A DNA stretch of 64,000 bases from Clostridia bacterium (GCA_017501545.1 JAFVWS010000035.1:75408-139407); one strand, 5' to 3'; counted from the first letter of the stretch, positions 3,879 through 63,075 are shown. Translations and numbers: made by a program. The notes: generated from the sequence alone by a model not told the origin.

Positions 3879-3981
3879 CAACCACCTTGTGGTTGCATTA
3901 TGTAAACCATAGGTTTACTTTTTCGTTCCTCTGTATAAATATCCCAAATTGGGATATTTTAATTATACCACAATGGTATAA
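3879..3981. promoter_or_regulatory. Divergent intergenic control region with four perfect palindromes
   Basis: The palindromes are caaccac-ctt-gtggttg (3879-3895), gtaaacc-ata-ggtttac (3902-3918), aatatcccaa-a-ttgggatatt (3938-3958) and ttatacca-caa-tggtataa (3963-3981). The last one overlaps an extended -10 (TGgTATAAT, 3974-3982) that sits about 30 nt upstream of the XRE gene start. Confidence 0.45.
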
Positions 3982-4012
3982 TTGTGTCAAGAGATAAAAA
4001 TAGGAGACTATT

Positions 4013-15932: not shown

Positions 15933-15962
15933 CAAAAAAGGAACAGCAAAATTTGCTGTTCC
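15933..15962 (-). terminator. Rho-independent terminator that closes the T7SS/kinase/TIR operon
   Basis: The hairpin ggaacagcaaa/tttgctgttcc is followed on the minus strand by tttttt. It begins 8 nt after the stop of 15970..18111. Confidence 0.75.
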
Positions 15963-15969
15963 TTTAATC

Positions 15970-18111
15970 CTATTGTATGTAAGCCTCAGCGCCTGCTTCT
16001 CTTAATTCATTGAGAACGTAGTTTGCCTCCTCAAGAGTGTCAAGCTCTGCAATTACGCAAGGAGCTGCATCAATCATATCCTTTGCGGTTCTTAAATCAA
16101 CCTCAAACATTTCCTTTATTGAGTTCATAACCGCAAGCTGATTTAGTCCACCTGATTGTAAAACCACGCTATACTTGCCTTCCTCACTGTCACTATCCTC
16201 TACGCACGCTTCCTCCTCACCGTCAGAAACCGCCTCGTATGTGCCAGTGTTTTCGCCCTCGTTTTGCATAAAGTTGATTTTTTGATTAATTTGTGCAATT
16301 GCGCTTCTTGCTGTATCAATATTAGCCTGAACAGCCATAATATCGTTCTCAATTTCGTGTACAGCCTCGCTTTGCTTGCCAATATTGCCAGGTCTATATC
16401 TTACAAGTGTTTTGATTGCTTGAATATGCGAAACCAAGCCACCGGTAAGAAGCATATCCGCAGGAATTAATCCAGCACGCTTAATCATTGCAAGCAAAAC
16501 GATGCCAGAAATAGTACGCACAACAATCATTGTAACAACTGAGCCTACATGGCTTCCATCTCCGCCAGTGCTTACCAAGTTTATAAATCCACTAAGAAGG
16601 GTGAAAATATATGCAATGGTAATAATCAGGTGCACTCCTGCAACCACGTTTAGCTTAATTGCATTTTTCTTGTTAAACTGACCGTGTCGCGCCCTTTCAG
16701 CAGCCTCTTCAAGGTCTTTCTTTTGTTTCAAGAACTCGCCTATACGGTTAGATGCGTTTTGTCTTGCGTTATATAGCGCTTGAAGCTCGCTTTGTCTTTG
16801 TGCCTCAAGCTCTGCATTTTCTCTAATTTGACGTTCTCTTTCTCTGCGCTCAGCCTCAAGCTTTTCAAGAGTTTCCTTAATCTGCGTATTATAACCGATG
16901 ATTCTTGTTGCCGTCTCGTCGTCTAAGAAACGAATTGCATTTTTGTAGGCTGCATAGTTTTCAAAAACTGTTGTGCAGTAAACGAGGTCAGATTCCTTTG
17001 TGCATTTTAGCTGAGCAAGAAGCTTGCCAAGATAAGCGCGTCCGTTTTCAGGGTCATTATCAAGCACCTTTTCAGCATATTCATCAGCGCTTGACCAATC
17101 CTCTGACTCAAGGAAGAGATATACACGCTTTAGAAGCGCCTCAGTATTTGCAGCCGGTGCTTGAATAGCTGTTGGCGCAGCCTGTGCTTGTATAGGTGCC
17201 TGCACCCTTTGCTCATTCTTTTTGCCTATGATTTTCTTAATACCTCTAATGAGGTCAGGCATAAAGCCAAGCTTGCTCATATCCTGTGCCTGTAGGTGGG
17301 AAAATTCTTGTGGCAAATCGTAAGGGTCCATATCCTTATATGCAGGAATTAGCACCTTTCTCGCACCATTTTTAATAAGTGAAAGATATCTTGACCACTC
17401 ATTCTTCACCCAAACTGCATTAAAGAATTCAGGCTTTGTTCCAAGAACAACCATTACCTTTGCACTATTAAGTGCAGCGAAGATATATGGCTCATAAGCA
17501 ACACCAAGCTTATCCTCAAGAGTAATACGGGCAAAGAACACCTTAAAGCCCTCTCTCTTTAGCTCGTGATAAAGCTCTGTTGCATAAACCGAATCGTGGG
17601 TTCTTCTTCCGTTTTCGTCTGTTTCCTTATAGCAAATAAATACATCAAATGGCTCTTCCTTTTGAGAAATATCAAGGATTCCCTTTTGAATTTCATTTAT
17701 TGCCCTTGCCTCCTCCTCATAAATAAGCTTTTGAGAAATGTCGGCATATTTTATAGCTGACTTATAGTTGTCATCGTCGAAAATTGACGTATATTGAGCA
17801 CGGTTAACGGTAGGAATTCTCTTCTTTGTTAGAGGGTCCTCTACGTATTCAATGCCATATTTACAAAGGACGATTGACCAATAGCTTTCCGCATCCTCGA
17901 TGTTTTCATTAAGAATCTCCTCATAGATTCCCATTGCCTTATCAAATTCATTGTTTCGGCGAAAATGATTTGCGCGGTCGTAAAGCCTTTCAATCATATC
18001 ATCATTAAGCCTTGGAAGCGTTTGCTGACTGCCACAATAATCGCAGGTGATTGTTGTGCTATTTTCAACATTTAATGCGCCACCACACATTTTACACTTA
18101 AAAACTGCCAT
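15970..18111 (-). CDS. Zn-ribbon / TIR / TPR-like / coiled-coil / 2-TM / L7-L12-C-terminal-domain-like protein (713 aa)
   Basis: From N- to C-terminus I see: a Zn ribbon (CKMCGG...CDYCG); a TIR-like block (FDVFICYKETDENG...VFFARITLE...AKVMVVLGT...AVWVKNEWSRY); TPR-like helices; a charged coiled coil (EAERRERERQIRENAELEAQRQ); two hydrophobic helices (VVAGVHLIITIAYIFTLLSGFINLV and VGSVVTMIVVRTISGIVLLAMI); and a C-terminus (YSVVLQSGGLNQLAVMNSIKEMFEVDLRTAKDMIDAAPCVIAELDTLEEANYVLNELREAGAEAYIQ) that resembles the ribosomal L7/L12 CTD. Confidence 0.8.
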   Translation of the reverse strand: MAVFKCKMCGGALNVENSTTITCDYCGSQQTLPRLNDDMIERLYDRANHFRRNNEFDKAMGIYEEILNENIEDAESYWSIVLCKYGIEYVEDPLTKKRIPTVNRAQYTSIFDDDNYKSAIKYADISQKLIYEEEARAINEIQKGILDISQKEEPFDVFICYKETDENGRRTHDSVYATELYHELKREGFKVFFARITLEDKLGVAYEPYIFAALNSAKVMVVLGTKPEFFNAVWVKNEWSRYLSLIKNGARKVLIPAYKDMDPYDLPQEFSHLQAQDMSKLGFMPDLIRGIKKIIGKKNEQRVQAPIQAQAAPTAIQAPAANTEALLKRVYLFLESEDWSSADEYAEKVLDNDPENGRAYLGKLLAQLKCTKESDLVYCTTVFENYAAYKNAIRFLDDETATRIIGYNTQIKETLEKLEAERRERERQIRENAELEAQRQSELQALYNARQNASNRIGEFLKQKKDLEEAAERARHGQFNKKNAIKLNVVAGVHLIITIAYIFTLLSGFINLVSTGGDGSHVGSVVTMIVVRTISGIVLLAMIKRAGLIPADMLLTGGLVSHIQAIKTLVRYRPGNIGKQSEAVHEIENDIMAVQANIDTARSAIAQINQKINFMQNEGENTGTYEAVSDGEEEACVEDSDSEEGKYSVVLQSGGLNQLAVMNSIKEMFEVDLRTAKDMIDAAPCVIAELDTLEEANYVLNELREAGAEAYIQ

Positions 18112-18132
18112 TTCTAATGTCCGTTGCTCCTA

Positions 18133-18858
18133 TTACTTTAATATTTTGCATTTAGCATTTCTTTCGCTAATAAGAGCAGATAGCTCCTTGGAAAACACAG
18201 CTGCGTTTTCTGCGTTTTTCTCATCAACAGCTACTGAAAATTCAGCAAATTTTTCTGTGATTCTACCCTCGACTGATTCGAGTGCTGGGTCTGACATAGG
18301 GTCGCTGTATCTAATTTCCTCATATACATTTCTTGCCAAAAGAGAAAGCTCCTCGCCGTCCGCCCTTGCCTTTAGCGCCTCTGCCTCGCTGATAAGCCAT
18401 CTCATATAAGTTGTCTTTGCTTCAACCCTTGCTTCTACAGCCGCAGCGTGCTCACCGCTTACCTTTGCGCCAAGTATAGAAATAACACCTACAACTAAGG
18501 TAATAGCACAAGCGATTATTCCAATCCAAGAAGCAACATAGCCATATACAGCTATGCAAATACCACCAATAACCAAGGTGACAATTAGAGTTGTTATGCT
18601 TGTTGAAATCATTGGAAGATTTAAAAATCTCTTATCCTTGCTCTTTTCACTAAGTGCAATAAATGCAATGGCAAGCTGACCAATAAAGGAAATTGTAATT
18701 ACAATATAAGCCGCCCAGAAAATACCCGTGCCAAGCTTATCAACCTCAACACCATTTATTTCTCTATATCTTGGTGTTACAAACGCAATTAGATTGAAAA
18801 GGCCAAGGGACAACGCCCAGCCAATAATATAATAAATAAAGCTTTTAGCGAATTTCAT
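18133..18858 (-). CDS. 4-TM membrane protein with a helical cytoplasmic tail (241 aa)
   Basis: Four clear hydrophobic helices are followed by an Ala/Glu-rich helical C-terminal domain of about 100 aa. A good RBS (ggagg) is present. No family recognised. Confidence 0.65.
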   Translation of the reverse strand: MKFAKSFIYYIIGWALSLGLFNLIAFVTPRYREINGVEVDKLGTGIFWAAYIVITISFIGQLAIAFIALSEKSKDKRFLNLPMISTSITTLIVTLVIGGICIAVYGYVASWIGIIACAITLVVGVISILGAKVSGEHAAAVEARVEAKTTYMRWLISEAEALKARADGEELSLLARNVYEEIRYSDPMSDPALESVEGRITEKFAEFSVAVDEKNAENAAVFSKELSALISERNAKCKILK

Positions 18859-18873
18859 TTTTCATCCTCCTTA

Positions 18874-21561
18874 TTAAAGCTTTTCGCCACATTCTGGGCA
18901 GAATTTTGGATTGCCGTTAATCTCTGTGTCACACTTCGCACATTTGCGAGCAAGGGCTGCCCCACATTCGCCACAGAATTTACCCTTAGCTGTCTTTTGA
19001 CCGCATGATGGGCAAATAACCTCATTGTCGTTAAGGCTTTCTATTTTTGCGCCACATTCTAAGCAGAACTTAGAGGTTGAAGGCACGCTCGCATTACATT
19101 TTGGGCAGGTTGTAGCAGGTGCAACTGGCTCTTGTGGCTGGAAGCCCTTAAACATATCGCCCATTTGTGGAGCAATGTGTCCTGCTGCTGCAAGACCAAC
19201 ACCAAGTCCAACCATATCACCAGCAACTGAGCCACCACCTGTGATTGTCATATTGCCAATGCCCTTTGCATATTCCTTTTGAACCTCAGCCTGAATAATG
19301 TCTCTTTGGTTGTAGCCTTGTGCCTGCATAATTTCAGCCTGTGCGAAGCCGTCCATCTTTTTAGCCTGAGCCTCTGCCTGAGCCTTAATAAGGTCTCTTT
19401 CAGCCTGACGCTTTGCAATTTCTGTTGCTGTTAGCTCGCCCTCAAGGATTGTTTCTCTGTCTGCCTTTATTTTAGCTGTTCTTACAGCTGCCTCTGCCTC
19501 TGCAACCTTTGTTTGCAGAGAGATTGTATGAAGCTCACGAAGCTTTTTGAAGTTAGGGTCGTTTTCCGGAAGATTGATTGTTGTTATGTAGAACTGTGGA
19601 ATTGTAAGACCATATTCCTCAAGTGCCGGTGTAATGTTTCTTCTTAATACCTCGGAAAGAAGCTCAAGGTTTTCGTCAACATCCAAAAGATCAATATTTT
19701 GAGATTTTATCGTTGCTGCAAGATGTGTCTTTACAGCAGTTGTGATAAGTGGACGGAAGCAATTTTGAAGCGACTTTGTAAAGAACGCACCACGCTCCTC
19801 CCATGCAATACCATTCGTTGTACCAACAAGCTTAATAAGAAGCTTACGAGCGTTGGAAACTGCTAAATTAAGCTCACCAGATGCGCCAATTTCAAGAGGA
19901 ATACCAAGCGTTGGCTCAACAAAGCGCACAAGCTCAGGTGTGCCCCATTTAATGCCCATTTGAACAGTCTTATTAATAAAGTAAACCTCACAGTGGAAGG
20001 GTGATTCTCCACCTGCCACTCTCTTCATTGATTTTCCAACAAGTGGAAGGTTTTGTGTTTCAAGAGTATGACGACCTGGGCCAAACAAATCAAGCGCTTG
20101 ACCATTAAGGAAGAATACTGCCTCCTGTGATTCGTGAACTATAAGCTGTGTATAATTGTTGAAATCCTCGCGTGGGTGCTTCCAAATAAAGGTATTGTTA
20201 TCACCCTCATATTTAATTACGTCTACCACATTGTTAGCCATAATAATTGTCCTTTCCCCTGCTACTGCCGGTTTTGTTGAATTTACAAAAGAATCATCGT
20301 CCCTTGACGAATTAGCGCCTCCAAAATTTGGCGGTGGCACAACCCAATTTGCTGATGCAATCTTTGAATCTGCCACTGGCGCAGAAGGCTTTGGTGCTTC
20401 AATAGGTGGAGCCTTAGGCGCGCCTGATGAAAAGTCATTTTTTGGTGAAGGTGCTTGTGTCTTAGCTGGTGCTGAAATTGTATCAAATAAATGACGGTCC
20501 TCCTCTGAAGGAAGCGTTTCATTCATAGATGAAGGCGCACCAACTGCTATCGTTTCCTCTGCAGCCTTGCCTTGTGACACCGCTTTGCCTTCAGTCCTGC
20601 TTGAATTGATTGGGGTGCCCTCCATTACAACATCATCAAGGGCTTTTTCTCCCATTTCCTTTTCACATTCTAAGAGCGCATCATAAAATTCCTTTGCAGA
20701 ATCGTATCTTTGTGCGCGTGGACTGATTGCCTTGACTATTACCTCTCCAAGCTTATTTTTCGCCATCACAGGCGCGCTTGGCATCTTGCCTGTCATTCTC
20801 GTTTCAAATGCAATATCCTCGTCCTCTGTTGAATATGGCTCTGGAAATTCTGGCAGGAATGGATTTCTTGATTTATTTAATAGCTTATATAAAACTATTC
20901 CAAGTGAATATAAATCCACTGTATTATCGTACTTTTCTTTTCCAAGGTATACCTCAGGTGCTATGAAGTTTGGTGTGCCCTTGACGGACTCAGCACGTGA
21001 CTTGTCCTTTAGCATTTTGGATACACCAAAGTCCCCAAGCTTATATTCACCCTTGGAGGAAACAAATATATTGTCGTCCTTAATATCTCTGTGAATGATG
21101 CTCTTTTCGTGACAGGAAATTAAGGCTGTCAATATATCCTTACCTAATTTTATTACGTCCCTTACAAGTATAGGCTTGCTTTCTATATAGTCTGTAAATG
21201 GTGTTAAAAACTCCATCATTATGTAAATGTCGTATGTTTTTGGAGATGGCGTCTCGATAATATCATTTTCATAATATCTAACTATGTTTTTAGTGCCACT
21301 CTCTGATAACGTGCTTAAAATTTGTATTTCACTAACTATATCATTAAGCACGCTTGCAAAATAATCGTCTGCCTTCGCATAGTCGCCGCCCATTGAGTTA
21401 AGCACGCTTGCATACTGCTTTTTTGTAGGCAATGTAATATGCTTTAGTGCCCTTACGTATGTTCCTGCGGCGTTTGTTTTTGATACCTTATAAACCGTTC
21501 CGAATCCGCCGGAGCCGATTTTTTCATCAACATGATAGCCTAATATTTCTTTACCGATCAT
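18874..21561 (-). CDS. Hanks-type Ser/Thr kinase fused to an SPFH/Band-7 (YdjI-like) domain and three C-terminal zinc ribbons
   Basis: Kinase motifs are intact (GSGGFGTVYKV, RALK, HRDIKDDN, DFG, APE). A P/A-rich linker follows, then an SPFH-like region (VIKYEGDNNTFIWKHPREDF...FHCEVYFINKT...), a coiled coil, and three CxxC...CxxC ribbons. ATG 21561 is preceded by ggag. The ORF-track start at 21564 is a TTG one codon upstream. Confidence 0.85.
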   Translation of the reverse strand: MIGKEILGYHVDEKIGSGGFGTVYKVSKTNAAGTYVRALKHITLPTKKQYASVLNSMGGDYAKADDYFASVLNDIVSEIQILSTLSESGTKNIVRYYENDIIETPSPKTYDIYIMMEFLTPFTDYIESKPILVRDVIKLGKDILTALISCHEKSIIHRDIKDDNIFVSSKGEYKLGDFGVSKMLKDKSRAESVKGTPNFIAPEVYLGKEKYDNTVDLYSLGIVLYKLLNKSRNPFLPEFPEPYSTEDEDIAFETRMTGKMPSAPVMAKNKLGEVIVKAISPRAQRYDSAKEFYDALLECEKEMGEKALDDVVMEGTPINSSRTEGKAVSQGKAAEETIAVGAPSSMNETLPSEEDRHLFDTISAPAKTQAPSPKNDFSSGAPKAPPIEAPKPSAPVADSKIASANWVVPPPNFGGANSSRDDDSFVNSTKPAVAGERTIIMANNVVDVIKYEGDNNTFIWKHPREDFNNYTQLIVHESQEAVFFLNGQALDLFGPGRHTLETQNLPLVGKSMKRVAGGESPFHCEVYFINKTVQMGIKWGTPELVRFVEPTLGIPLEIGASGELNLAVSNARKLLIKLVGTTNGIAWEERGAFFTKSLQNCFRPLITTAVKTHLAATIKSQNIDLLDVDENLELLSEVLRRNITPALEEYGLTIPQFYITTINLPENDPNFKKLRELHTISLQTKVAEAEAAVRTAKIKADRETILEGELTATEIAKRQAERDLIKAQAEAQAKKMDGFAQAEIMQAQGYNQRDIIQAEVQKEYAKGIGNMTITGGGSVAGDMVGLGVGLAAAGHIAPQMGDMFKGFQPQEPVAPATTCPKCNASVPSTSKFCLECGAKIESLNDNEVICPSCGQKTAKGKFCGECGAALARKCAKCDTEINGNPKFCPECGEKL

Positions 21562-21574
21562 CAACTTGCTCCTT

Positions 21575-22393
21575 TCAGAATTCTATCAATATAAGCGTAA
21601 TGTTATCACCATAGCCGGCATTGCGCCCAAGTGCACGCTCTATAAGAATTTTTCCAATTTGTTTAATGTCTTGATTTGTTTTAAATATCTCTGTCATTTC
21701 CTCATCGCTTAATACATCCGTCAAGCCGTCGGTGCATAACAGTAATTTTGTTGTATAGGCGCTTTTTTCAATTTTAAATGCGTCCGCAACCAATTCCCCA
21801 TTATATCCAATATATCTATATAGGTTTTTTCTTCTTGGGAATTTTTCGCACTCCTCCTTGGACAGAAGCCCTAAGCCTAAGAGCCTTTGTCCCTCTGTAT
21901 GGTCAACGGATAGCTGCTCCAGCTCCTCTCCTCTATAAGAATAAAGCCTGCTATCACCTACGTTAAAGCCATAAAGCTCACCGTTTTTGCGGACGAAGCC
22001 ACAAAGCGTTGCGCCCATTCCGTGAAGCTCCTCGCGCTCTCTTGCGCTTTCTACAACATAACGATTTAGCTTTGATATTTCGCCCTTCAAGGCTTCCTTA
22101 GTAATAGATGCAGGGTCAAAAATTCTTCTGCTATTTTCAGCCAAGTAGCCAACGCTCATCGCGCTTGCCACCTCGCCCGAGGCATGCCCCCCCATTCCAT
22201 CGGAGACGGCAATTATAAGATTATCCTCAAGATTACATTCGTATGCCAATTCATACGTCTGCCTGCTTTGAGAAATATAAAGCACCTCTTCCCTTGAAAG
22301 AATTCGTCCGTTGGCAATTAGCGCATTATCTTCTTGATTTTCGCGACTGTTTCCAACGCTTGAGGCAAAATATACAGAAGTTTTATCGGTCAT
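21575..22393 (-). CDS. PP2C-family Ser/Thr phosphatase (272 aa)
   Basis: Typical PPM motifs are present (EDNAL, SDGMGGHASGEVAS, CTDGLTD, DNITLILIEF). Its ATG shares one nucleotide with the stop codon of the upstream radical-SAM gene. Confidence 0.85.
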   Translation of the reverse strand: MTDKTSVYFASSVGNSRENQEDNALIANGRILSREEVLYISQSRQTYELAYECNLEDNLIIAVSDGMGGHASGEVASAMSVGYLAENSRRIFDPASITKEALKGEISKLNRYVVESAREREELHGMGATLCGFVRKNGELYGFNVGDSRLYSYRGEELEQLSVDHTEGQRLLGLGLLSKEECEKFPRRKNLYRYIGYNGELVADAFKIEKSAYTTKLLLCTDGLTDVLSDEEMTEIFKTNQDIKQIGKILIERALGRNAGYGDNITLILIEF

Positions 22394-23232
22394 TACCTAC
22401 ACCCCATTTTCCATTCGTGTTCGTTTTCCTTCATTTCTTCAATAGTACGATATCGCCATTTTTGTAATTTGGAGCACGGAGATATTGTTCCGTCTACATT
22501 TATAAATATCGCGCTTTCGCCAATGTCTAAACACCTAAATTCACTATTTGTAGTATACTCCCAATATTCTTTAAAGCATTTTTCTATTCGATACAAACTT
22601 GGATTTTTCGCTATTATATTTTGAATGCGTTGAATTGTATGAGTTGAAATGGTTGGACTGTATATTCCACTAAAAGATTTCACGGGGCGAAGTATGTCTA
22701 TTTTTTTCACGCCAATATTTACAAGATATTGAGACAATTTTTCAAAATTGTCAATATTTTGATCAGACAATACGACATTGGCACAGCATAATACACCCAC
22801 ATCGCAGGCATCTTTAATTGCCGCCATGCCAATATCATATGTATCACGAGTTAACGAGTTTATACTTTTGTCTATATCATTCATCGATATGCACAAAACA
22901 TCCAAACCGTTTTTTTTAAGTTCTGAGTATTTCTCTCTTGAATGATTGTATCCAGATGTTGCAAGAAAAACGAACCTTCTATTGCCCTTGCATTCTTTTA
23001 TCAACAAAGATAAATCCTCATGCATAAGCGGTTCTCCACCGGTTATTTGAACCACCTCAACATCTTTTGTCTGTGGTAAATTTAAAATTTCTTTTACTAC
23101 ATCCAATGATATATACCTGTCCCCTTTTTCGGTGTAGCAGTAGTTGCAATTATAGGGACAAGAATTGGTACATTGAATAACACAAGCCTGCAACCGCAAG
23201 ATTTTATTCCTTTTCCTTTTCTTGTTGGTCAA
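22393..23232 (-). CDS. Small radical-SAM enzyme with a short C-terminal Cys-containing (twitch/SPASM-like) tail
   Basis: It carries a CPYNCNYCY (CxxxCxxC) motif near the N-terminus, a GGEPLM motif, and a C-terminal FINVDGTISPCSKL. The start is uncertain. Position 23232 is a TTG that overlaps DUF4176 by 29 nt. In-frame TTGs at 23199 and 23193 lie just after the DUF4176 stop, with aaggaa upstream. No ATG precedes the Cys motif. Confidence 0.75.
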   Translation of the reverse strand: MTNKKRKRNKILRLQACVIQCTNSCPYNCNYCYTEKGDRYISLDVVKEILNLPQTKDVEVVQITGGEPLMHEDLSLLIKECKGNRRFVFLATSGYNHSREKYSELKKNGLDVLCISMNDIDKSINSLTRDTYDIGMAAIKDACDVGVLCCANVVLSDQNIDNFEKLSQYLVNIGVKKIDILRPVKSFSGIYSPTISTHTIQRIQNIIAKNPSLYRIEKCFKEYWEYTTNSEFRCLDIGESAIFINVDGTISPCSKLQKWRYRTIEEMKENEHEWKMGCR

Positions 23233-23485
23233 GACGAATTAATTTTTGCAAGAACTCCATTCCTTCTGCATCTTGAAGTCCAACAAAGAACAATTTGTCT
23301 ATTTGATCAAAGTTAAACAGGTATAGCTTTTCAGGATTTATTATTCCTTCAGGATACAAGCATCCGCTAAAATCCCACATTTTACCATTATCAATCTGTT
23401 TTTGTCTTAATCCAACCACCATAACTCGTTTGTTACTATTTTTCAAAAGCACAACGGAGCCGATTGGAAGATATTTGTTTTCCAT
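23204..23485 (-). CDS. DUF4176-family small protein (T7SSb accessory type, 93 aa)
   Basis: YLPIGSVVLLKNSNKRVMVVGLRQ...W(D)FSGCLYPEG matches my recollection of the DUF4176 signature. The gene lies directly downstream of a putative T7 substrate. Confidence 0.65.
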   Translation of the reverse strand: MENKYLPIGSVVLLKNSNKRVMVVGLRQKQIDNGKMWDFSGCLYPEGIINPEKLYLFNFDQIDKLFFVGLQDAEGMEFLQKLIRLDQQEKEKE

Positions 23486-23570
23486 GACTAATTTAAACCT
23501 TTCTTTCTCACATTATCCAAAAATCTTTTGTAAAGTGTATTTTATGTATTTTGATTGTCAAAAAAGATAC

Positions 23571-24728
23571 TTACCAAGAGGTTATGGCATTCCAAAAGCT
23601 CTTTGCTCCATCCGCAATCGTTTCGCCAACATCACTGAAAAAATCGCCTACTGCATTAACAGCGTCGTTAACAAAATCACCTACTGCTTCAACAGTGTCG
23701 CTAACAAAATCACCTACTGCTTCAACAGCGTCGCTAACGGTTTCTTTAAAATTTTCCCATCCTGCATCATTAAATCCAATTTCAATGCCAAGAGAAAATC
23801 CCAATATTGCTGCGACTCCGCCTTCCATTTTGAATTTTCCGTTTTCAAATCCAATCTCGCCCTCTGCTCCAATAGCTCCTGCATATCCACCGGCGCTGAT
23901 TTTTATATCCAATCCAAAAATGCTGAATGTCGCCTCTGCTTTTCCTTGAGCCGCGGCGACCATCGCCTTGCCTTCGGCTTTTGCTATAACTTTACCGTCA
24001 TCATCAATTTTCATGCCAATCTCGCCTTTTGCTTCAGCTACTCCAATGCCTCCTTCGCCACTTATGCCAAATCCCGCCATATCGTCACCGATATTTAAGG
24101 ATCCTTCAGCTCCTAGAACTTGGACTGAAGCTCCAACCTCGGCGCCAATAGATATAAATTCCATGGTTTCTTTTTCTTCCCATGTACCATCTTTCTTTTT
24201 TTCGCGCGTCTTTGTAGCTTTTCCAAAAGCAAACGAAGTGTCAAAGCTAGCCTCTGCTTTTCCTACGTAGGCATCTACTTCTGCGTTTCCCCAACCCCAA
24301 TCAGCACCGGCATAAGCATTGACTAAGTATGCACTTGCACTATTATCTGTAACCTTTGTTCCAAGTCCGTTAACATATGCGGAGCCCCATTTATCAGGTT
24401 TTTCAAGATCAGTCAAGCCTAAATCAATTTTAGCCGGCAAATATATATCAGGAGAATTCATTCCCAAAGGATCGTCTAAGCTTGCATAAACTATTGCAAC
24501 TTGAGATAGAAGCGCTCCCATTTGATTCAATGTAGTGGCCTCTTTTTTTAATTCCTCTGGAATCGAAAATATTTTTTCCTTTGCGCCAGAATGATATAAA
24601 ATATCCGTTTCTGCCGAGTTGATCGTTTCTACATAGGTATTATACACTCTTACCAATTCTTGTGTATATGAATTAATTGTGGAAGAATAGTCATTGATTT
24701 TGTTTACATTAACTTTAATATAAGGCAA
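23571..24728 (-). CDS. Putative T7SS substrate/toxin with an N-terminal helical (LXG/WXG-like) region and a Gly/Ala-rich repetitive C-terminal domain
   Basis: The gene follows the WXG genes. It has a TTG start with ggagg 7 nt upstream. The N-terminal 90 aa or so look helical. The rest is rich in GxxxG/A strings (GAEVGASVQVLGAEGSLNIGDDMAGFGISGEGGIGVAEAKGEIG...). The C-terminus carries a 3x 11-aa repeat, D(A/T)VEAVGDFV(S/N). There is no signal peptide. I could not point to a literal LxG motif. Confidence 0.45.
   Translation of the reverse strand: MPYIKVNVNKINDYSSTINSYTQELVRVYNTYVETINSAETDILYHSGAKEKIFSIPEELKKEATTLNQMGALLSQVAIVYASLDDPLGMNSPDIYLPAKIDLGLTDLEKPDKWGSAYVNGLGTKVTDNSASAYLVNAYAGADWGWGNAEVDAYVGKAEASFDTSFAFGKATKTREKKKDGTWEEKETMEFISIGAEVGASVQVLGAEGSLNIGDDMAGFGISGEGGIGVAEAKGEIGMKIDDDGKVIAKAEGKAMVAAAQGKAEATFSIFGLDIKISAGGYAGAIGAEGEIGFENGKFKMEGGVAAILGFSLGIEIGFNDAGWENFKETVSDAVEAVGDFVSDTVEAVGDFVNDAVNAVGDFFSDVGETIADGAKSFWNAITSW
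23640..23738. repeat. 3 x 33-bp in-frame tandem repeat inside 23571..24728
   Basis: The unit aaaatc(g/a)cctactgc(a/t)t(t/c)aacag(c/t)gtcg(t/c)taac occupies 23640-23672, 23673-23705 and 23706-23738. Confidence 0.9.
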
Positions 24729-24754
24729 ACTATTTCCTCCTATGTATTATCAAT

Positions 24755-25054
24755 TCAACTTTGTTGTGCTTGTGCGCCTTGTACGTTTGCATTTTCAGTA
24801 GCATCGTACGTGTCTGCTGCTTTCTCGAGAAATGTTGCATAGCTTATAATTGTCGTATAAATATCATCAAAATTATCAGCCAAGCCTTGGAACTTTGCAA
24901 CTGTTGTTTCTGCTGATTCGCCTTGCCAGGTTGATCTTAAGCTTTCGATTTCAGCAGTCATTTCGCCTGTGAATGTTTTAATAGAGTTAGCAACTGTCTT
25001 AAATGAGTTTGCCTTGTCTCTCATTGATGTAGAATTAACCTTAATTGTAGCCAT
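24755..25054 (-). CDS. WXG100-family protein (99 aa)
   Basis: The size fits, a central WQGES motif is present, and the helical composition and Q-rich C-terminus fit the family. The gene lies in the T7SS operon. Confidence 0.75.
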   Translation of the reverse strand: MATIKVNSTSMRDKANSFKTVANSIKTFTGEMTAEIESLRSTWQGESAETTVAKFQGLADNFDDIYTTIISYATFLEKAADTYDATENANVQGAQAQQS

Positions 25055-25068
25055 TTTAAAATTCCTCC

Positions 25069-25380
25069 TTAGATTCCTGTATGAAGATTGCTTGCGGCAC
25101 CTTTAATTGCCTCTTCTGTTTTAACGTAATTTTCCGCAGCTGCCCTAAGATACTTTACATATTGCAAAAGCACTGCCGACATTGTTTCAAAGTCGTTTCT
25201 GTAAGCCTCAAGCTTTGCATTAAACGTGTCACTTGCAATACCTTGCCATTGCGCAGATTTCAAGTTTTGAATTTCTGTGTAAAGCTTTGCCCACTCAGCG
25301 TTGTAGCGTGCGGTTTTCTCCTCGATTACGTTTGCAGAAGAAACCAATCTTTCTGTTGTTACTGCCCATTCGTTTGCCAT
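25069..25380 (-). CDS. WXG100-family protein (103 aa)
   Basis: A central WQGIAS motif (W-x-G) is present, with the expected helical hairpin size. It is adjacent to the other WXG gene. Confidence 0.7.
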   Translation of the reverse strand: MANEWAVTTERLVSSANVIEEKTARYNAEWAKLYTEIQNLKSAQWQGIASDTFNAKLEAYRNDFETMSAVLLQYVKYLRAAAENYVKTEEAIKGAASNLHTGI

Positions 25381-25438
25381 AGTTGTTATTTCCTTTCTTT
25401 TTACAGCTGTTGCTGATTTTTATTAATTATTTTCGCTA

Positions 25439-25681
25439 TCATCTAAGATTTTTAGCAGCACGTTCCATAGCGTTTGATACATCTGACATGCTTTGCTTCG
25501 TTTTTTGTATATCCGAAATAATCTTTGATAAACGGTTTTGAAACTCTTCGGATGCGGGACCTCTCCATTCATTTTTCATTTTATCTCGCAAAATCTCCAG
25601 CGAGAGAATTTTGCAGTCCAAATCCGACTCCAAATTATGGATTTGTTCGACTTGGCTAATAGCCTTTGAATAATCAGCCAT
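25439..25681 (-). CDS. Small WXG-like helical protein (80 aa)
   Basis: It has a WRGPASEEF motif and lies between the esaB-like gene and the WXG genes. It is shorter than typical EsxA. Confidence 0.5.
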   Translation of the reverse strand: MADYSKAISQVEQIHNLESDLDCKILSLEILRDKMKNEWRGPASEEFQNRLSKIISDIQKTKQSMSDVSNAMERAAKNLR

Positions 25682-25694
25682 GATGATACCCCCG

Positions 25695-25952
25695 TTATAT
25701 TAGCAATAGTTTTTCGCCGTGAGTGATGCCTAACTGCTTGAAATTACAGCCTGAATTAAGCACCTTGCCTGTTGACGCCTGCATAAGCGCGCCAGCTTGA
25801 AGCTTACTACGCTTAATTCCAGGATATTCCTCGCTGATTGCGTTTTGAATTAGCACAGTAGCATCTAACACACTCATTTCAAACGGAATAAGAAAATTAT
25901 GCTCGACGTTTAAGGAGAGAACCTTTATATTTACCGATAATTTATCTACCAT
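25695..25952 (-). CDS. YukD/EsaB-like ubiquitin-fold T7SS protein (85 aa)
   Basis: The size fits, and it lies 10 nt downstream of essC. The sequence pattern looks like a beta-grasp (LSVNIKVLSLNVEHNFLIP...GEKLLLI). Confidence 0.6.
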   Translation of the reverse strand: MVDKLSVNIKVLSLNVEHNFLIPFEMSVLDATVLIQNAISEEYPGIKRSKLQAGALMQASTGKVLNSGCNFKQLGITHGEKLLLI

Positions 25953-25962
25953 TTTATCCTCC

Positions 25963-28900
25963 TTATATCTTAACGTAAGCTATTTCGTCCTTCGAATAAA
26001 CGATAGCCTCACCATCATCTAATTTAATCTCGCGCGATTTTGTTGGCACACTGTATATGTCTGTCGTTATCGCCTGGGCAACGGAGTTATTAATCTCGCC
26101 ACCGATAATTACACCACATTGTGCGCGAACAAGCATTGAGTAAAGTCCGGCGCTTTGATATTCACCCCAGCGTTGCATATCATCAAGCGTAACTATATGA
26201 AGCCTTGGGCTTCTTGATACTATCTTCTCAAATTTGTTAAGCGCCTCATCAGAAATTCTATCAAAGAAATCACAAAATCCGTCTATAACTATAATTATAT
26301 CCGTTAGGTCGCTTTCCTCCTTTGCCCACAAATCATCAACAAAAGCATCAATGTCGTCGACAAATTCAAGTTGAGAAAGCTCCTCGTCACGATTAGAGGA
26401 TATTATGTATGCTTTTTTACCCTGCCTTACGATACTTGCCTTGAGCTTTTTCGCAAGCCCGCTGCTTGCACGTGTGCCGATGAAGATTCTTTTAGCGCTC
26501 GAATAATTAAATCCAACCTCTTCGCCACTTGCCTTATCAACGCCAACAAGCATATCACCCTCGTCAGATGGCGCATATTTGTATCTTTTACATTCGATTT
26601 TTTGAGCTGTAGGAATCAATGATGAAATATCCTTAATGGGTGCGTTTTTCTCGGTGCTTGATTTTATTTTTCTTTTGCTTGAATAGCTGTTGCCCTTAGA
26701 GACCTTAGCCATTTCAGCATATATCTCATTTATTTTTGAAGCACGAAGTGATTCGTTTGAGGCATTAAACGGAACAGCAAACTGCACCTCCGTCGCCTTA
26801 CCGCCCTTAACCACTAAGCCTCTGCCCTTAGCCTGCTCCGGCATAATTGGAACAGACACGTTAAGAATATCTCTGTACGCGCCAGAATCATTCATATTAA
26901 GGACTATTCTTTCTGAAATATGCTCAGTTACCCTATAGTAAATTGCACCCTTGCTATTACCTGTAACAATGAAATAAATACCACAGGCGCGCGCAGCGGA
27001 CACTAACTGAACAAGCGTATCCTCTACCCTGTGCGTTTTTTCACGGAATGCTGCATAGTCGTCAAGTGCAAAAATTATCATTGGCATTTTTTCATCAGTA
27101 AGTCTTATATATGACTCGTAGTTTGCACAATGGCTCTTTGTAAATATCTCTCTTCTTTCTGCAATTATTCCGTTTAGAATATCAAGCATTTCGTTTAATC
27201 CTGCATCATCGCTATCGGAAACATACCTTGAGCAATGAGGCATTGAAGCGAGGCTTGCAAGTCCTCCACCACCAAAGTCAGCCACAAATAGATTTAGCAT
27301 CTCTGGCGAAAGCTTAAGCGCCAAGGAGAACAGAATTGTTTGAATAAGTGTACTTTTTCCAGTACCTGAAGCGCCATATATTGCCAAATGTCCGTTTTCC
27401 AAGAAATCAACACTATATTGCTCCTGCTTTTGCTTTTCCGGCAAATCAACCATACCACAAATAGCCTGCATTTGTGTATCTGTATCCCACTCGTCAATAT
27501 TAAGAGCAAGTGCGCTGTTAAGGCACCTTTCAAGGAGTAAGGATGTGGAAAGAGGTGGAAGCCATAGCTTTTTCGCCCTGAGCTTCTGCTGCTCACCAAT
27601 GCTTGCAAGAAGCGACACTGTCTCCTCAAGCTGTGTACGCTCACTCTTTTTGTCAGCAACGGATTTTTTAGAGGTTCTTATTCTTTCCGCGTGCCAGTTT
27701 ACCATGTCAACTGAAACGCTGTCCTCATCTATATATTCCTTTTGCTCTATATAGTCAGCACCACTATATCCAGATTGAATCTGCTCAAAGATTTCGTCGT
27801 AGCCAACCTGAACAAACGCACGACCTGGTTGCTTAATGAGTGCAGCCTCTGGCTTGCCAAGCATATCCATACTATCCTGCTTGTCAAGAACCTTTAGGCA
27901 AACCTTAAACTTTGAGTTGCTCCAAATTTGTGGGTCAACAACACCACTTGGTCTTTGCGTCGCCAAAATAAGATGTATTCCAAGGCTTCTACCAACCTGT
28001 GCTATGTCTATAAGCTTGGACATAAACTCGGGATGCTGGGATTTTAGCTGAGCAAACTCGTCGATTACAATAATCAAGTGAGGAAGTGGTTGATCCAGCT
28101 TTTTGTCCTTGAAATATTTATGGTATGAGTTGATATCAATCTTATCAACTCCTAATATCTCTGCAGATTTATTGAAAAGGCTTTGTCTGCTCTTCACCTC
28201 TGCCTCTAAGGAAATGAGCGCCCTGTGTAGCGTATTTCCAGAAAGGTTTGAAATGGTTGCCGCAAGGTGAGGTGAGCGCAAGAATGGTCTTGCCATATCG
28301 CCACCCTTAAAGTCAACCAGAACAAAGGCAACCTCATTAGGGCTATAGTTTATCATCATTGATAAAATATAAGCCTGTAAGAATTCACTCTTACCTGAGC
28401 CTGTTGTTCCCGCCACTAAGCCGTGACAGCCGTGATACTTTTCGTGAATATCAAGCGAGAATATCTCGCCACCTGCCTTAACGCCAATAGGTGCAGCAAG
28501 GCTCCTTTCCGATACGTTTGTGCCCCAATGGTTTGTAATCTCCAAGGCACCAACGTTTCCAACCCTGAACATATCAAGGAAGGTTACTCTGTCTGGAATT
28601 GCCTCTGTGGTTTTATCAATTTTCACAGGAATTTGATTTATTTCGCTGCAAAGCTGTTTCATTAATGAATCAGAAACAGAGTCGGATTTATATTTTATAA
28701 AGCGGTTGTTGTTTTCATTTTTAACATACATACCGCAAACCTCTGCGTCCTTTTGAATTATAGCAACGCATTCCTTTGGAATATTACTAAATCTCTTTCC
28801 AAAGAACACAGTAGAAATACCAGAGGTGTTGTCCTTGTCAATTAAACGCTTTCTAAACGGCAAATCCTCAATTAAATTATCATCCAGCACCAAAACAACA

Positions 28901-30501
28901 TATCTTGGTAGCATATCCTCATTGCCCTCTTGGCTTGTCTCGCGGTCTGAAACAACCTCATCAAGATGTGCAAGAAGCGCCCTTGCCTCTTGTGGAGTGG
29001 TTGCCACGTATCGACGCTTTCTATCATTGCTCCATGTATGTGGTAAATCGTTAGCCCACTTAAGTGAAGACAAGTCTGAGGAATTATAAATCAATGCGAT
29101 TTTAACCTCATCTGGTGAGTGAAGCGCAACTATATTTGAAACAATAACCTTGAAAACCTCCTTGGTGTCGCCAACAACGCCAATTACCCTTTTGTCAGCC
29201 AAGGAAATAGCAATTGGAACATCGGTTAATGTTTCGTATCTGTTTTTTAGGTCAAGCGCCTGCTCAACCATTGGGTCATCCTCAAGGGTGAATGCCTTTT
29301 CTGGTGCTTGGATGTTCAATGGCGTGTCAATTTCACCAACACCTAAGCGTACAAGCAAAAAGTCCTCGTCTGTTGGCACCCTTTCCCAAAGGCGCCTGTT
29401 TCTGTCAAATATAAATTTCGACGTGTCAGCAGGAGATGGCATTGCGCTTTCCTTCAAAACGCGTGCATTCCTTTCATGCTTTTCCTTTATTTCGCCTTCC
29501 TTTTCAGCCAAATAAAGCTCATATCTTTTTATTCTATACTCCTCGTTTAGCCTTTCCTGCTTTTTGTTATATCTTCTCAAAAGCACTGGCCAAAGAAGCG
29601 CACCTGCAAGCATGCTGACAGCCATTACACTGCTTGTTATAACTGATGCAATGCCATTGCCCTTAACAGCATTTGCTATCGTAATACCAACGCTGGCAAG
29701 CATAGCAAGTGACATTGTAATAGAAGGGCCTGCCGTCAACAAAAACGGTGGTTGCTTTGATTTTTGAGGTGGTGTTGGGGCATCAATTACTATTTTGTCC
29801 TTGTCAACGGACTTGATAATTCTTGGCGTCCTTACATAATCACTTTCCTCCTCGTCCTTTTCAGGAGATGCGATTTCATACTCTTGAAGCAAGCTAAGCG
29901 CATTTGTCCTAATGTTTGATGGCAAAACTAATGCTCCGTCAAAGTAAACCATTGTTGTTCCCATTAAGTAAATCTCATCGCCATTCTCAAGCTTTCTTGA
30001 TGACTCTCTTTTTCCATTAACATAAATTGGCGTCTTTGTAGACAAGTCCTCAAGCACATAAGCGTCATTTTCCTTGTGAATAGCGGCGCATTTACGAGAA
30101 ACATTTGCATTGATGTCTATTATTATATTCGACTCCTCTGAGCGTCCAATAAATACATTTTCTTCACCAAGCATATATATATTCGATGACATAGAAAGCG
30201 TGCTACAATCAACGAAAAGAGCTGAATACACAACTCCATCGTTATCAAAGGTTAAATAGTCACCGTGTGAGATTTGCAAGGAGCCCTCTGCCTCTTGTCC
30301 TGCACTATAAATTTTTACAGCTGAGGATTTGCTTTGCAAGGTGTAATATTCCGCCTGAATATGAATAGGCAAATATATTTTCTTGTTTCCAAAAACAAAG
30401 CTCTTATCAACATAACCATTGAACGAATTTTGAATAAGCTCATCAATTTTATATTGACACATTTTATTATTTACAAAAATCGTTACTATAAAATTGTTCA
30501 T
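25963..30501 (-). CDS. essC: EssC/YukB-type FtsK-SpoIIIE T7SS ATPase with N-terminal FHA-like modules (1512 aa)
   Basis: The N-terminus is FHA-like (IGRSEESNIIID...VSRKCAAI...STKTPIYVNG...GDEIYLMG). Two TM helices follow. Walker A motifs GTTGSGKSEF and GASGTGKSTL are present, with Walker B IVIDEFAQL and a degenerate third ATPase domain. Confidence 0.9.
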   Translation of the reverse strand: MNNFIVTIFVNNKMCQYKIDELIQNSFNGYVDKSFVFGNKKIYLPIHIQAEYYTLQSKSSAVKIYSAGQEAEGSLQISHGDYLTFDNDGVVYSALFVDCSTLSMSSNIYMLGEENVFIGRSEESNIIIDINANVSRKCAAIHKENDAYVLEDLSTKTPIYVNGKRESSRKLENGDEIYLMGTTMVYFDGALVLPSNIRTNALSLLQEYEIASPEKDEEESDYVRTPRIIKSVDKDKIVIDAPTPPQKSKQPPFLLTAGPSITMSLAMLASVGITIANAVKGNGIASVITSSVMAVSMLAGALLWPVLLRRYNKKQERLNEEYRIKRYELYLAEKEGEIKEKHERNARVLKESAMPSPADTSKFIFDRNRRLWERVPTDEDFLLVRLGVGEIDTPLNIQAPEKAFTLEDDPMVEQALDLKNRYETLTDVPIAISLADKRVIGVVGDTKEVFKVIVSNIVALHSPDEVKIALIYNSSDLSSLKWANDLPHTWSNDRKRRYVATTPQEARALLAHLDEVVSDRETSQEGNEDMLPRYVVLVLDDNLIEDLPFRKRLIDKDNTSGISTVFFGKRFSNIPKECVAIIQKDAEVCGMYVKNENNNRFIKYKSDSVSDSLMKQLCSEINQIPVKIDKTTEAIPDRVTFLDMFRVGNVGALEITNHWGTNVSERSLAAPIGVKAGGEIFSLDIHEKYHGCHGLVAGTTGSGKSEFLQAYILSMMINYSPNEVAFVLVDFKGGDMARPFLRSPHLAATISNLSGNTLHRALISLEAEVKSRQSLFNKSAEILGVDKIDINSYHKYFKDKKLDQPLPHLIIVIDEFAQLKSQHPEFMSKLIDIAQVGRSLGIHLILATQRPSGVVDPQIWSNSKFKVCLKVLDKQDSMDMLGKPEAALIKQPGRAFVQVGYDEIFEQIQSGYSGADYIEQKEYIDEDSVSVDMVNWHAERIRTSKKSVADKKSERTQLEETVSLLASIGEQQKLRAKKLWLPPLSTSLLLERCLNSALALNIDEWDTDTQMQAICGMVDLPEKQKQEQYSVDFLENGHLAIYGASGTGKSTLIQTILFSLALKLSPEMLNLFVADFGGGGLASLASMPHCSRYVSDSDDAGLNEMLDILNGIIAERREIFTKSHCANYESYIRLTDEKMPMIIFALDDYAAFREKTHRVEDTLVQLVSAARACGIYFIVTGNSKGAIYYRVTEHISERIVLNMNDSGAYRDILNVSVPIMPEQAKGRGLVVKGGKATEVQFAVPFNASNESLRASKINEIYAEMAKVSKGNSYSSKRKIKSSTEKNAPIKDISSLIPTAQKIECKRYKYAPSDEGDMLVGVDKASGEEVGFNYSSAKRIFIGTRASSGLAKKLKASIVRQGKKAYIISSNRDEELSQLEFVDDIDAFVDDLWAKEESDLTDIIIVIDGFCDFFDRISDEALNKFEKIVSRSPRLHIVTLDDMQRWGEYQSAGLYSMLVRAQCGVIIGGEINNSVAQAITTDIYSVPTKSREIKLDDGEAIVYSKDEIAYVKI

Positions 30502-30590
30502 ACTGTCTCCTTGCGCTTAGCTTTCTAATAATTAAGAAATTTCGCGGGTAAAACTAATAAACAGTAGCGCCCGCGAAAAATATATAATAA

Positions 30591-30619
30591 ATTATAACAT
30601 ATTATTCATAATTTGTCAA
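30591..30619 (-). promoter_or_regulatory. Consensus sigma-A-type promoter of the essC operon
   Basis: On the minus strand it reads TTGACA (30619-30614), a 17-nt spacer, then TATAAT (30596-30591). The roughly 85-nt leader contains an 8-bp stem ttcgcggg/cccgcgaa (30541-30578). Confidence 0.7.
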
Positions 30620-30656: not shown

Positions 30657-30688
30657 ATAAAAGCGCGTGAGTTTTCACGCGCTTTTTT
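30657..30688. terminator. Palindromic terminator downstream of 30690..30899
   Basis: The hairpin aaaagcgcgtga-gttt-tcacgcgctttttt separates the RHH-like gene from the essC promoter. Confidence 0.6.
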
Positions 30689-51840: not shown

Positions 51841-51904
51841 ATTCTTTTCCTCCCTTTAATCAAATCTTATTTACATTATACAGTAACAATTTTGCATTGT
51901 CAAG

Positions 51905-62936: not shown

Positions 62937-63075
62937 AATTATCCTCCTTTTAAATATTTTCTATATTATAATACTATATTTTATTTTTGTCAAGGAAACG
63001 ATAAGATTTTAATCCTCAAATTCAACAAAAAAAGAAAGCAAGCACTCACACTTGCTTACTTTTTTCTTTTTAATA

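Follow-up and report, generated by a model that had tools for sequence, protein, structure and literature searches.

Gene content and transcription signals

Within a 64,000-nucleotide stretch of the genome of a gut Clostridia bacterium (GCA_017501545.1, JAFVWS010000035.1:75408-139407; hereafter the window, to which all coordinates refer), we analyzed a minus-strand gene cluster in which genes for a type VII secretion system (T7SS) are followed by genes for a Hanks Ser/Thr kinase fused to an SPFH domain, for a protein with four transmembrane (TM) segments, and for a TIR-domain protein. The reading that we favor, and consider probable, is that the cluster forms one transcription unit in which two evolutionarily related modules have been joined within a single open reading frame (ORF), with a kinase–SPFH scaffold gating the T7SS. 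We refer to the secretion genes from EssC through the kinase domain as module A, and to the SPFH, 4-TM, and TIR genes (the SPFH/4TM/TIR trio) as module B.

Twelve ORFs occupy positions 30501-15970 on the minus strand between a promoter and a terminator, with no opposite-strand gene in between. Our ORF calls reproduced both the number of ORFs and the gap sizes given in an earlier model-generated annotation of the same DNA (hereafter the original prediction). In order, the inter-ORF gaps are 10, 13, 58, 14, 26, 85, -29, -1, 10-13, 15, and 21 nucleotides (nt), where the -29 nt overlap at the junction of the DUF4176 and radical-SAM genes becomes a gap of a few nt if a later start is used. The consensus promoter at 30619-30591 and the strong terminator at 15962-15933, which had been proposed as the two ends of the operon, were both recovered by computation. 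The expression signals are:

30591..30619, minus strand: operon promoter, TTGACA, 17 nt, TATAAT, with an upstream TG (extended -10); consensus score 12/12
30502..30585, minus strand: 5' leader with two hairpins; dG -21.7 kcal/mol, z -2.2
23486..23570, minus strand: 85-nt intergenic gap with candidate internal promoters; TTGACA-16-TACACT at 23561-23534 scores 10/12
15933..15962, minus strand: intrinsic terminator of the operon; 13-bp stem, dG -19.4 kcal/mol, z -5.05, then a U-run

All 12 genes are predicted to be a single transcription unit, and the gene layout supports the single expression unit of the original prediction to that extent. An alternative, possible though in our view doubtful, is that there are two or more transcription units, with an internal promoter in the 85-nt gap or elsewhere driving the genes from DUF4176 through TIR separately. 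Apart from the 58- and 85-nt gaps, all intervals in the operon are short, and the extended -10 TGGATAAT about which the original prediction had cautioned is indeed there, visible near the 10/12 promoter-like site. However, the 85-nt gap contains no terminator, and none was found anywhere from the operon promoter (30619) down to the operon terminator (15962): terminator-like matches inside the operon are weak and fall within genes, and their number is what chance would give (19 found against 15.3 +/- 3.8 expected), in agreement with the earlier statement that the operon is free of internal terminators. In addition, relatives conserve DUF4176 directly after the substrate gene, and an internal promoter would add to read-through from the operon promoter rather than replace it.

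The window has four exact instances of the TTGACA-17-TATAAT arrangement, where 0.02 would be expected by chance, and all four are on the minus strand (3962-3990, 30591-30619, 51875-51903, and 62965-62993). Directly upstream of the operon promoter, a bidirectional terminator at 30659-30686 insulates the operon from the upstream ComM-like gene. The EssC leader contains a stable 9-bp GC-rich hairpin and a second helix that pairs UUUCUU with the AAGGAG ribosome-binding site of EssC; these hairpins may be a translational control element. An Rfam scan of the whole window, the EssC leader included, gave zero matches. The genes that flank the operon are housekeeping genes (PFOR, the ComM-like gene, SpoIIE, and transketolase), and GC composition, which is uniform (0.38-0.44), gave no sign of horizontal transfer of either module.

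Secretion genes and accessory enzymes

Besides the kinase domain, the genes of module A, all on the minus strand, encode the following proteins, with lengths in amino acids (aa):

25963..30501, minus strand: secretion ATPase of the EssC/TsxC type, 1512 aa; FHA domain at the N-terminus, two TM segments, ATPase domains of the FtsK type (TIGR03928, FtsK_SpoIIIE)
25695..25952, minus strand: 85-aa candidate ubiquitin-like TsxB/EsaB/YukD protein; position conserved in all orthologous loci
25439..25681, minus strand: WXG100 protein 1, 80 aa (Pfam WXG100, E 1.3e-6)
25069..25380, minus strand: WXG100 protein 2, 103 aa (Pfam WXG100, E 2.5e-10; TIGR03930 above cutoff)
24755..25054, minus strand: WXG100 protein 3, 99 aa (Pfam WXG100, E 1.2e-13; TIGR03930 above cutoff)
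23571..24728, minus strand: 385-aa probable secreted substrate with a WXG100-like N-terminal hairpin (hhalign) and a variable Gly/Ala-rich C-terminal part
23204..23485, minus strand: DUF4176 protein, 93 aa, of the Ltc toxin-chaperone family (Pfam DUF4176, E 3e-27)
22393..23232, minus strand: small radical-SAM enzyme with an ambiguous start, 237-268 aa by gene callers (Pfam Radical_SAM, E 4e-20)
21575..22393, minus strand: PP2C/PPM phosphatase, 272 aa (Pfam PP2C_2, E 1.4e-14)

EssC scored 973 bits against TIGR03928 (cutoff 778) and carries one Pfam-canonical FHA domain (aa 117-179, E 7e-11), with its TM segments placed by hydropathy at aa 261-302. When aligned to GarA, this FHA domain retains GR and SR, the Arg and Ser of the phosphothreonine pocket; its orthologues conserve GR and SR(K)H, and the window protein has Cys for the His. 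Phosphothreonine binding by the EssC FHA domain is plausible on these residues, though not assured.

The domain calls that the original prediction had made along the gene order were confirmed by Pfam and NCBIfam, the soft point being the 85-aa protein, which had been called YukD/EsaB-like. In favor of that call, a profile search against the PDB returned solely ubiquitin-like proteins, albeit weakly (E 0.08-1.9), and the orthologue in locus L173 has a weak precomputed YukD match (PF08817). However, the window protein itself had no match in a Pfam and NCBIfam scan, and its single-sequence AlphaFold2 (AF2) model (pLDDT 55) was too poor for a fold search.

With regard to the 385-aa protein, its N-terminus matched the family of WXG100 protein 3 (hhalign probability 95.2%, E 2.8e-8), a Pfam scan gave no match, and conservation in orthologous loci is limited to the first ~100 aa. 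Given this WXG100-like conserved head and variable remainder, the protein is best read as a polymorphic substrate. Near its C-terminus, a tandem repeat of 3 x 33 nt (90% matches, 23640-23738) encodes V-x-D-x-V-E-A-V-G-D-F repeats. The next gene encodes a member of a family, DUF4176, whose proteins have been shown to chaperone T7SSb toxins (PMC12478183).

The radical-SAM enzyme has its CxxxCxxC motif in the form CPYNCNYC, a SPASM match below the cutoff for that family (E 0.0066), and NCBIfam matches that all fall far under family cutoffs. Its family is tiny, with 23 members at E<=1e-5 among 5.8 billion proteins, and every relative that we examined (L083, L170-L172, and L174) occupies the DUF4176-radical SAM-PP2C-kinase slot of a T7SS locus. 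We saw no obvious gene for a precursor peptide. The PP2C protein has the key motifs of its family, and its gene is immediately upstream of the kinase gene in all related loci.

A kinase fused in frame to an SPFH protein

The ORF at 18874-21564 (minus strand) encodes an 896-aa protein that combines Pkinase, Band_7_1, and zinc ribbons, and that has no TM segment by hydropathy. Its parts are:

20545..21561, minus strand: Hanks Ser/Thr kinase domain, fusion aa 1-340 (Pfam Pkinase, E 1e-40)
20242..20544, minus strand: kinase linker, in which homology to stand-alone kinases stops after an RHLFDT motif
18874..20241, minus strand: SPFH domain (Band_7_1, E 2.5e-37), coiled coil, Gly-rich segment, and three zinc ribbons (DZR)

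The kinase domain shares 59-82% identity with kinases linked to T7SS genes, and the GxGxxG, K40, HRDIKDDN, DFG, and APE motifs are invariant across the kinase family. Stand-alone kinases continue after RHLFDT with a C-terminal domain of two TM segments, which is missing from the fusion. The SPFH part is 48-69% identical to the SPFH–zinc-ribbon (SPFH-ZnR) proteins of trio loci and 26-42% identical to those of T7SS loci. It starts at an internal ATG (20241-20239; MANNVVDVIKYEG...) that corresponds to the start of stand-alone homologues, and a Shine-Dalgarno-like GGGGAAAGGA precedes this ATG at the kinase/SPFH junction (window 20239-20262). Judging from this arrangement, GGGGAAAGGA and the internal ATG appear to be a relic of the ancestral SPFH start, from which a free SPFH-ZnR protein might still be translated. 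The junction would fit an in-frame deletion that brought the beginning of an SPFH gene directly behind the kinase linker.

A search of the 5.8 billion proteins returned one full-length relative of the fusion (P0001, 99% identical, 20 member sequences). Other matches were stand-alone kinases of ~620 aa (68-79% identical over the kinase domain), and the remaining ones were stand-alone SPFH–zinc-ribbon proteins of ~500 aa (55-68% identical). The same 895/896-aa fusion is present, in the same 12-gene order and with near-identical intact ORFs, in at least seven independent assemblies, which rules out an assembly or frameshift artefact. We also ran an exhaustive HMMER search against 1.84 billion cluster representatives and scanned with Pfam the multi-stretch or unusually long candidates among the best 150. 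No second protein with both a kinase and an SPFH domain was found among these scanned candidates, which comprised tandem kinases, kinases that carry LRR, MORN, or DUF6273 domains, and one SPFH-only protein.

Conservation of the kinase-type secretion locus

Relatives of module A were collected by a metagenome scan with a kinase alignment, together with look-ups of individual homologues (loci are given L numbers). Their conserved gene order is EssC (FHA), the 85-aa protein, three WXG100 proteins, a variable protein of 330-460 aa with further genes sometimes beside it, DUF4176, in some cases the radical-SAM enzyme, PP2C, and the kinase. Every kinase homologue with at least 57% identity and enough flanking DNA sits in this EssC-to-kinase order. 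At least 14 Clostridia loci include EssC (L001, L084-87, L092, L094, L096, L098, and L170-174), and the distal part of module A was seen on 10 shorter contigs.

Further genes accompany these loci. An SPFH–zinc-ribbon protein of the T7SS type (350-394 aa) is encoded in 11 of the 12 loci that have DNA upstream of EssC. A zinc-ribbon (ZnR)–TPR protein of 197 aa (ZnR-TPR197) is encoded downstream of the kinase in eight loci, mostly immediately adjacent to it. Proteins of 163-196 aa with a YidD domain and an N-terminal extension are encoded upstream of the SPFH gene or downstream of the kinase (L086:111-602, L083:7610-8119, L171:14765-15280, and L174:14691-15281); YidD is a membrane-protein insertion efficiency factor.

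The SPFH, 4-TM, and TIR genes as a separate unit

Downstream of the kinase–SPFH gene, the operon ends with two further genes:

18133..18858, minus strand: 4-TM protein (4 TM segments by hydropathy) with a cytoplasmic helical C-terminal domain, 241 aa
15970..18111, minus strand: 713-aa protein with zinc-ribbon, helical, TIR, TPR, coiled-coil, 2-TM hairpin, and L7/L12 C-terminal-domain (CTD)-like parts (TIR_2, E 4.6e-11; Ribosomal_L12, E 7e-10)

To survey the trio, species-representative genomes were scanned with an SPFH-ZnR alignment, which gave more than 595 confirmed matches, and 80 loci were analyzed. A 4-TM gene directly follows the SPFH gene in 61 of the 72 trio loci with enough downstream DNA, and a ZnR-TIR-TPR gene is present at 43 of 48 well-flanked loci. 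In contrast, genes for EssC, WXG, or DUF4176 proteins were found at none of the 35 trio loci that have +/-8 kb of flanking DNA, and at the loci examined the trio lies among housekeeping genes. The SPFH/4TM/TIR trio is a separate and widespread unit that stands without neighboring T7SS genes in the sampled species-level genomes, and the original prediction needs correcting on this point. Kinase and PP2C matches near trio loci L038 and L040 were considered as a linkage and rejected; those of L040 belong to a housekeeping operon, fmt-rsmB-rlmN-prpC-prkC(PASTA)-rsgA.

The first ~420 aa of the TIR protein are conserved across trio loci, with TIR domains up to 89% identical. The Glu of a W-V-x-N-E-W motif is invariant in 58 TIR homologues and aligns with the S-x-W-C-x-x-E motif of Toll-like receptors (TLR). 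The ZnR-TIR-TPR family is often multi-copy: the 80 loci (L002-L082) contain 76 complete ORFs of 303-2561 aa, such as those within L060:14-11018, L044:1969-8406, and L040:7584-14014. Their C-termini are hypervariable, and Pfam matches among 60 members included DUF6273 (24), RCC1 (7), BspA-LRR (6), and LRR_8 (3). DUF6273 has been described as a receptor-binding domain diversified by diversity-generating retroelements. In about half of the members, one strong TM segment lies between the TPR region and the variable domain, so that the TIR domain would be cytoplasmic and the variable domain extracellular, in an inverted layout that resembles a Toll-like receptor.

The window TIR protein has two TM segments by hydropathy, and its C-terminal part is unique to the window. 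At its cytoplasmic C-terminus (aa 645-713, window 15970-16170) we observed a homologue of the ribosomal L7/L12 CTD (Pfam E 7e-10; TIGR00855 E 1e-9), and no L12 CTD was found on the TIR proteins of the 80 related loci. The ribosomal L12 CTD binds translational GTPases.

MORN, LRR, or DUF6273 C-terminal domains were also observed on relatives of the T7SS kinases (P0190, P0201, P0274, P0275, and P0288; 33-51% identity), some of which are tandem kinases. LRR and DUF6273 are common to these tails and to the variable C-termini of the TIR family, which suggests, at the level of domain content, that receptor-kinase and receptor-TIR families draw sensor domains from a common pool.

Kinship and linkage of the two modules

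The SPFH-ZnR proteins of the T7SS loci are paralogous to those of the trio (~31% identity, E 1e-58). The membrane-plus-helical domain with which the T7SS kinases end is a homologue of the 4-TM family (hhalign 99.8%, E 5.4e-29, 198 columns), with a direct tblastn match in L170 (37% identity). From these similarities, the SPFH and 4-TM proteins of module B appear to be paralogues of accessories of module A. In the lineage of the window, the kinase would have lost its own membrane domain and gained, in frame, an SPFH protein of the trio type, with the 4-TM and TIR genes of the trio following.

Two further loci bring the same kinds of genes together in other arrangements. In L172, a kinase, a 485-aa protein, a ZnR-TIR-TPR protein, and an SPFH protein of the T7SS type are encoded at the end of a complete T7SS locus, and the ZnR-TIR-TPR protein is 49% identical to the window TIR protein over aa 1-399. 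In L175 (9202-19946), an orthologous block encodes PP2C, the kinase, a 467-aa polytopic protein, a ZnR-TIR-TPR protein, and SPFH-ZnR; further along come genes for another PP2C and for an FHA-FHA-ABC ATPase and its permease, and no T7SS genes lie within 10 kb upstream. This signaling block may serve an FHA-bearing ABC exporter in place of EssC. The polytopic proteins of L175 and L172 (467 and 485 aa) were ruled out as homologues of the 4-TM protein (hhalign probability 1.3%). The grouping of kinase, PP2C, TIR, and SPFH genes described in the original prediction recurs, then, both with a T7SS (L172) and without one (L175). Taken with the other T7SS loci, this recurrence points to the kinase, PP2C, SPFH, and sometimes TIR proteins as a signaling block that is usually attached to an FHA-bearing EssC. 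The linkage to essC that the original prediction had put forward for comparative checking holds for the kinase and PP2C, which are conserved beside FHA-EssC, but much less for TIR: of the ~15 kinase loci whose downstream DNA extends far enough, 3 have a TIR gene along with the kinase.

The main rival to a functional joining of the modules is an accidental juxtaposition, in which a deletion fused two unrelated neighboring operons, the T7SS and the trio being independent (or the T7SS degenerating) and the fusion having no adaptive meaning. Several of our observations weigh on its side or count against our preferred reading. The kinase–SPFH fusion is genuine but specific to one species-level lineage, and T7SS genes were near none of the 35 trio loci. 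The SPFH part in the window is of the trio type rather than the T7SS type, so the join could be an accident of neighborhood. The window also lacks the kinase TM domain, the ZnR-TPR197, and the YidD-like protein that most relatives carry, as well as their T7SS-type SPFH protein, and its T7SS could be decaying. A TIR gene is absent in 12 of the 15 kinase loci mentioned above. The FHA pocket of EssC is incomplete: no orthologue has the NG-loop Asn, and in the window Cys stands in for the His. The similarity of ZnR-TPR197 to the ZnR-plus-helical N-terminus of the TIR proteins (hhalign 86.6%, E 4.5e-6) is only suggestive of homology. Finally, shared flanks do not reveal the ancestral arrangement: no informative flanking genes were shared that could tell which module inserted beside which, as L018 alone has PFOR, arranged differently.

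Against an accident, at least seven assemblies carry the 12 ORFs undamaged and almost identical in sequence, and an SPFH-ZnR paralogue is nearly always encoded in related T7SS loci. Moreover, the membrane domain of the kinases is homologous to the 4-TM protein of the trio, and the TIR family is tied to this kinase family and an SPFH protein in two more, differently organized loci (L172 and L175). The paralogy, the near-universal SPFH gene, and these two loci weaken the rival, and we regard an accidental juxtaposition as unlikely. Our preferred interpretation remains that of one transcription unit with two related modules joined in one ORF, and the comparisons above suggest that the parts of the operon work together at the membrane.

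Comparison with described systems

The closest described systems are among the T7SSc-j variants defined by Garrett, Higginson and Palmer 2024, several of which have a membrane Ser/Thr kinase, a PPM phosphatase, and FHA domains (PMC11217815). Phospho-regulation of such variants has been proposed by analogy with the type VI secretion system (T6SS) (PMC11217815). Like T7SSe and T7SSj, module A combines an EssC-type ATPase that bears an FHA domain at its N-terminus with WXG100 proteins, an adjacent small candidate TsxB-like protein, a Hanks kinase (TsxD) with intact active-site motifs, and a PPM/PP2C phosphatase (TsxF). Unlike in those systems, the window kinase lacks TM segments and continues into an SPFH protein, and TsxI (a large Ig-like protein with a Sec signal), TsxJ (DUF6382-FHA), and the single-TM TsxH and TsxK are absent from the operon and from the Pfam-annotated orthologous loci. 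The relatives have extras over T7SSe and T7SSj, namely the SPFH–zinc-ribbon, ZnR-TPR, and YidD-domain proteins and sometimes the radical-SAM enzyme. By its gene content, module A appears to belong, as a minimal variant, with the T7SS of the kinase/phosphatase type that are already published.

The original prediction had not recognized the locus as a described system. This needs to be qualified, as kinase/phosphatase/FHA T7SS are published, but it stands for the SPFH and TIR additions, which are not in that paper. SPFH, TIR, and DUF4176 have no mention in the main text of PMC11217815, where other accessory proteins were not searched for, and a search of the literature available to us for an operon-encoded SPFH or TIR protein tied to a T7SS found nothing. 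The general kind of system, a kinase/phosphatase T7SS, is known; what is new is its lineage-specific, Rosetta-stone-like fusion to a conserved SPFH/4TM/TIR trio.

The type VIIb framing of the original prediction needs correcting, as this is not a canonical T7SSb. In common with T7SSb (S. aureus Ess, B. subtilis Yuk), the locus has an EssC that exceeds the cutoff of TIGR03928, WXG100 proteins like EsxA, a chaperone of the DUF4176 family, and a substrate logic that resembles LXG. However, EssA, the EssB pseudokinase, and EsaA are absent from the 12 ORFs and the scanned flanking genes, EssC has a single Pfam-canonical FHA domain, and an active-type kinase and a phosphatase are encoded. A further comparison is offered by the T6SS threonine-phosphorylation pathway of Pseudomonas (PpkA/PppA/Fha1), in which a membrane-associated Hanks kinase, a PP2C, and an FHA protein are likewise encoded with the secretion machine, and for which the same post-translational switching between on and off is proposed; the TssL-Fha phospho-system of the Agrobacterium T6SS is another parallel (cited in PMC11217815). 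The secretion machines are unrelated and here the FHA domain lies within the ATPase itself. The likeness would be functional only.

A link between SPFH-type proteins and a T7SS has been described in S. aureus, where the flotillin FloA scaffolds the T7SS (PMC5718613). The nearest characterized analogue of our SPFH component appears to be B. subtilis YdjI/SamI, a soluble SPFH protein with a C-terminal zinc finger that is recruited to the membrane by YdjG/H (PMC8581546; bioRxiv 10.64898/2026.02.06.704340; PMC11237479). Similar to the PspA-YdjGHI (SamGHI) system, the window encodes a soluble Band_7_1 SPFH part with a low-complexity segment and C-terminal zinc ribbons, next to genes for membrane partners of which one starts with a zinc ribbon. 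In contrast to it, none of the 12 ORFs has a PspA or a TPM domain (YdjH), the zinc-ribbon partner has TIR and TPR parts rather than a YpeB-like domain, and the gene order is different.

With regard to TIR immunity proteins (Thoeris ThsB and others), the window protein shares a TIR_2 domain with what is, by alignment, a conserved catalytic-type Glu; it differs in being embedded in the SPFH/4TM trio with no ThsA or other known partner, and many members of its family resemble single-pass receptors with extracellular LRR, RCC1, or DUF6273 domains. PADLOC gave no system-level match, only generic kinase, viperin, and TIR similarities (ThsB, E 0.0028; PDC-S66, E 5.5e-5). It is quite improbable that the SPFH, 4-TM, and TIR proteins are an abortive-infection or anti-phage module, in which, much as in the damage sensor considered in the original prediction, a sensor of membrane perturbation would trigger NAD+ depletion by TIR and the T7SS would merely be co-expressed in a general conflict response: the invariant Glu, weak PADLOC/NCBIfam matches to ThsB, Thoeris ThcB4, and PDC-S66, the multi-copy TIR paralogues with hypervariable C-termini, and the precedent for an L12/ClpS-type domain in conflict systems (PMC7159879) speak for it, but the matches are generic domain similarities, the trio sits amid housekeeping genes, a TIR domain up to 89% identical across species is atypical of fast-evolving defense genes, and no ThsA-like or other effector partner is present.

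Proposed mechanism and implications

Returning to a kinase–SPFH scaffold that gates the T7SS, we propose the following sequence of events. The 4-TM protein would dock a cytosolic SPFH-ZnR oligomer at the membrane, in the way that YdjG/H recruits YdjI/SamI in Bacillus subtilis. Docking would place the kinase beside EssC and activate it, and phosphorylation of Thr would then make a ligand for the EssC FHA domain and license T7SS assembly or firing, with PP2C resetting the switch. The TIR protein, whose catalytic-type Glu is intact, could act on the same scaffold as a second output. Whereas the gene content, the synteny counts, the homologies, and the existence of the fusion are direct results of our analysis, we infer co-transcription, the protein contacts, the phosphorylation targets, and the TIR activity, and the phospho-gating of secretion and any TIR output are to be taken in the same way.

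A broader and more tentative possibility is that Clostridia share a modular membrane-signaling chassis, made of an SPFH-ZnR scaffold, a 4-TM anchor or an equivalent domain, and a ZnR/TPR adaptor, that is plugged into varied outputs. These outputs would include a kinase/PP2C switch that licenses FHA-bearing exporters (the EssC T7SS in most loci and the FHA-ABC exporter of L175) and receptor-like TIR proteins, and the fusion in the window would then be a Rosetta-stone fusion that points to one kinase–scaffold complex. If this is true, the fusion would couple sensing at the cell surface or membrane to T7SS firing and TIR signaling.

How the Gram-positive T7SS is switched on post-translationally is an open question, and the kinase/phosphatase variants have so far only been catalogued. 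The locus and its relatives add components that can be tested, including an operon-encoded SPFH scaffold, a membrane domain common to the kinase and the 4-TM protein, and a TIR family, and the natural kinase–SPFH fusion hints at which proteins should touch. The conserved, uncharacterized SPFH/4TM/TIR trio, with TIR members that are often receptor-like, bears on the evolution of TIR signaling and on envelope sensing in abundant gut anaerobes. The interest of our findings rests less on the lone operon than on the possible sharing, among Clostridia, of an SPFH-based signaling chassis and a receptor-like TIR family.

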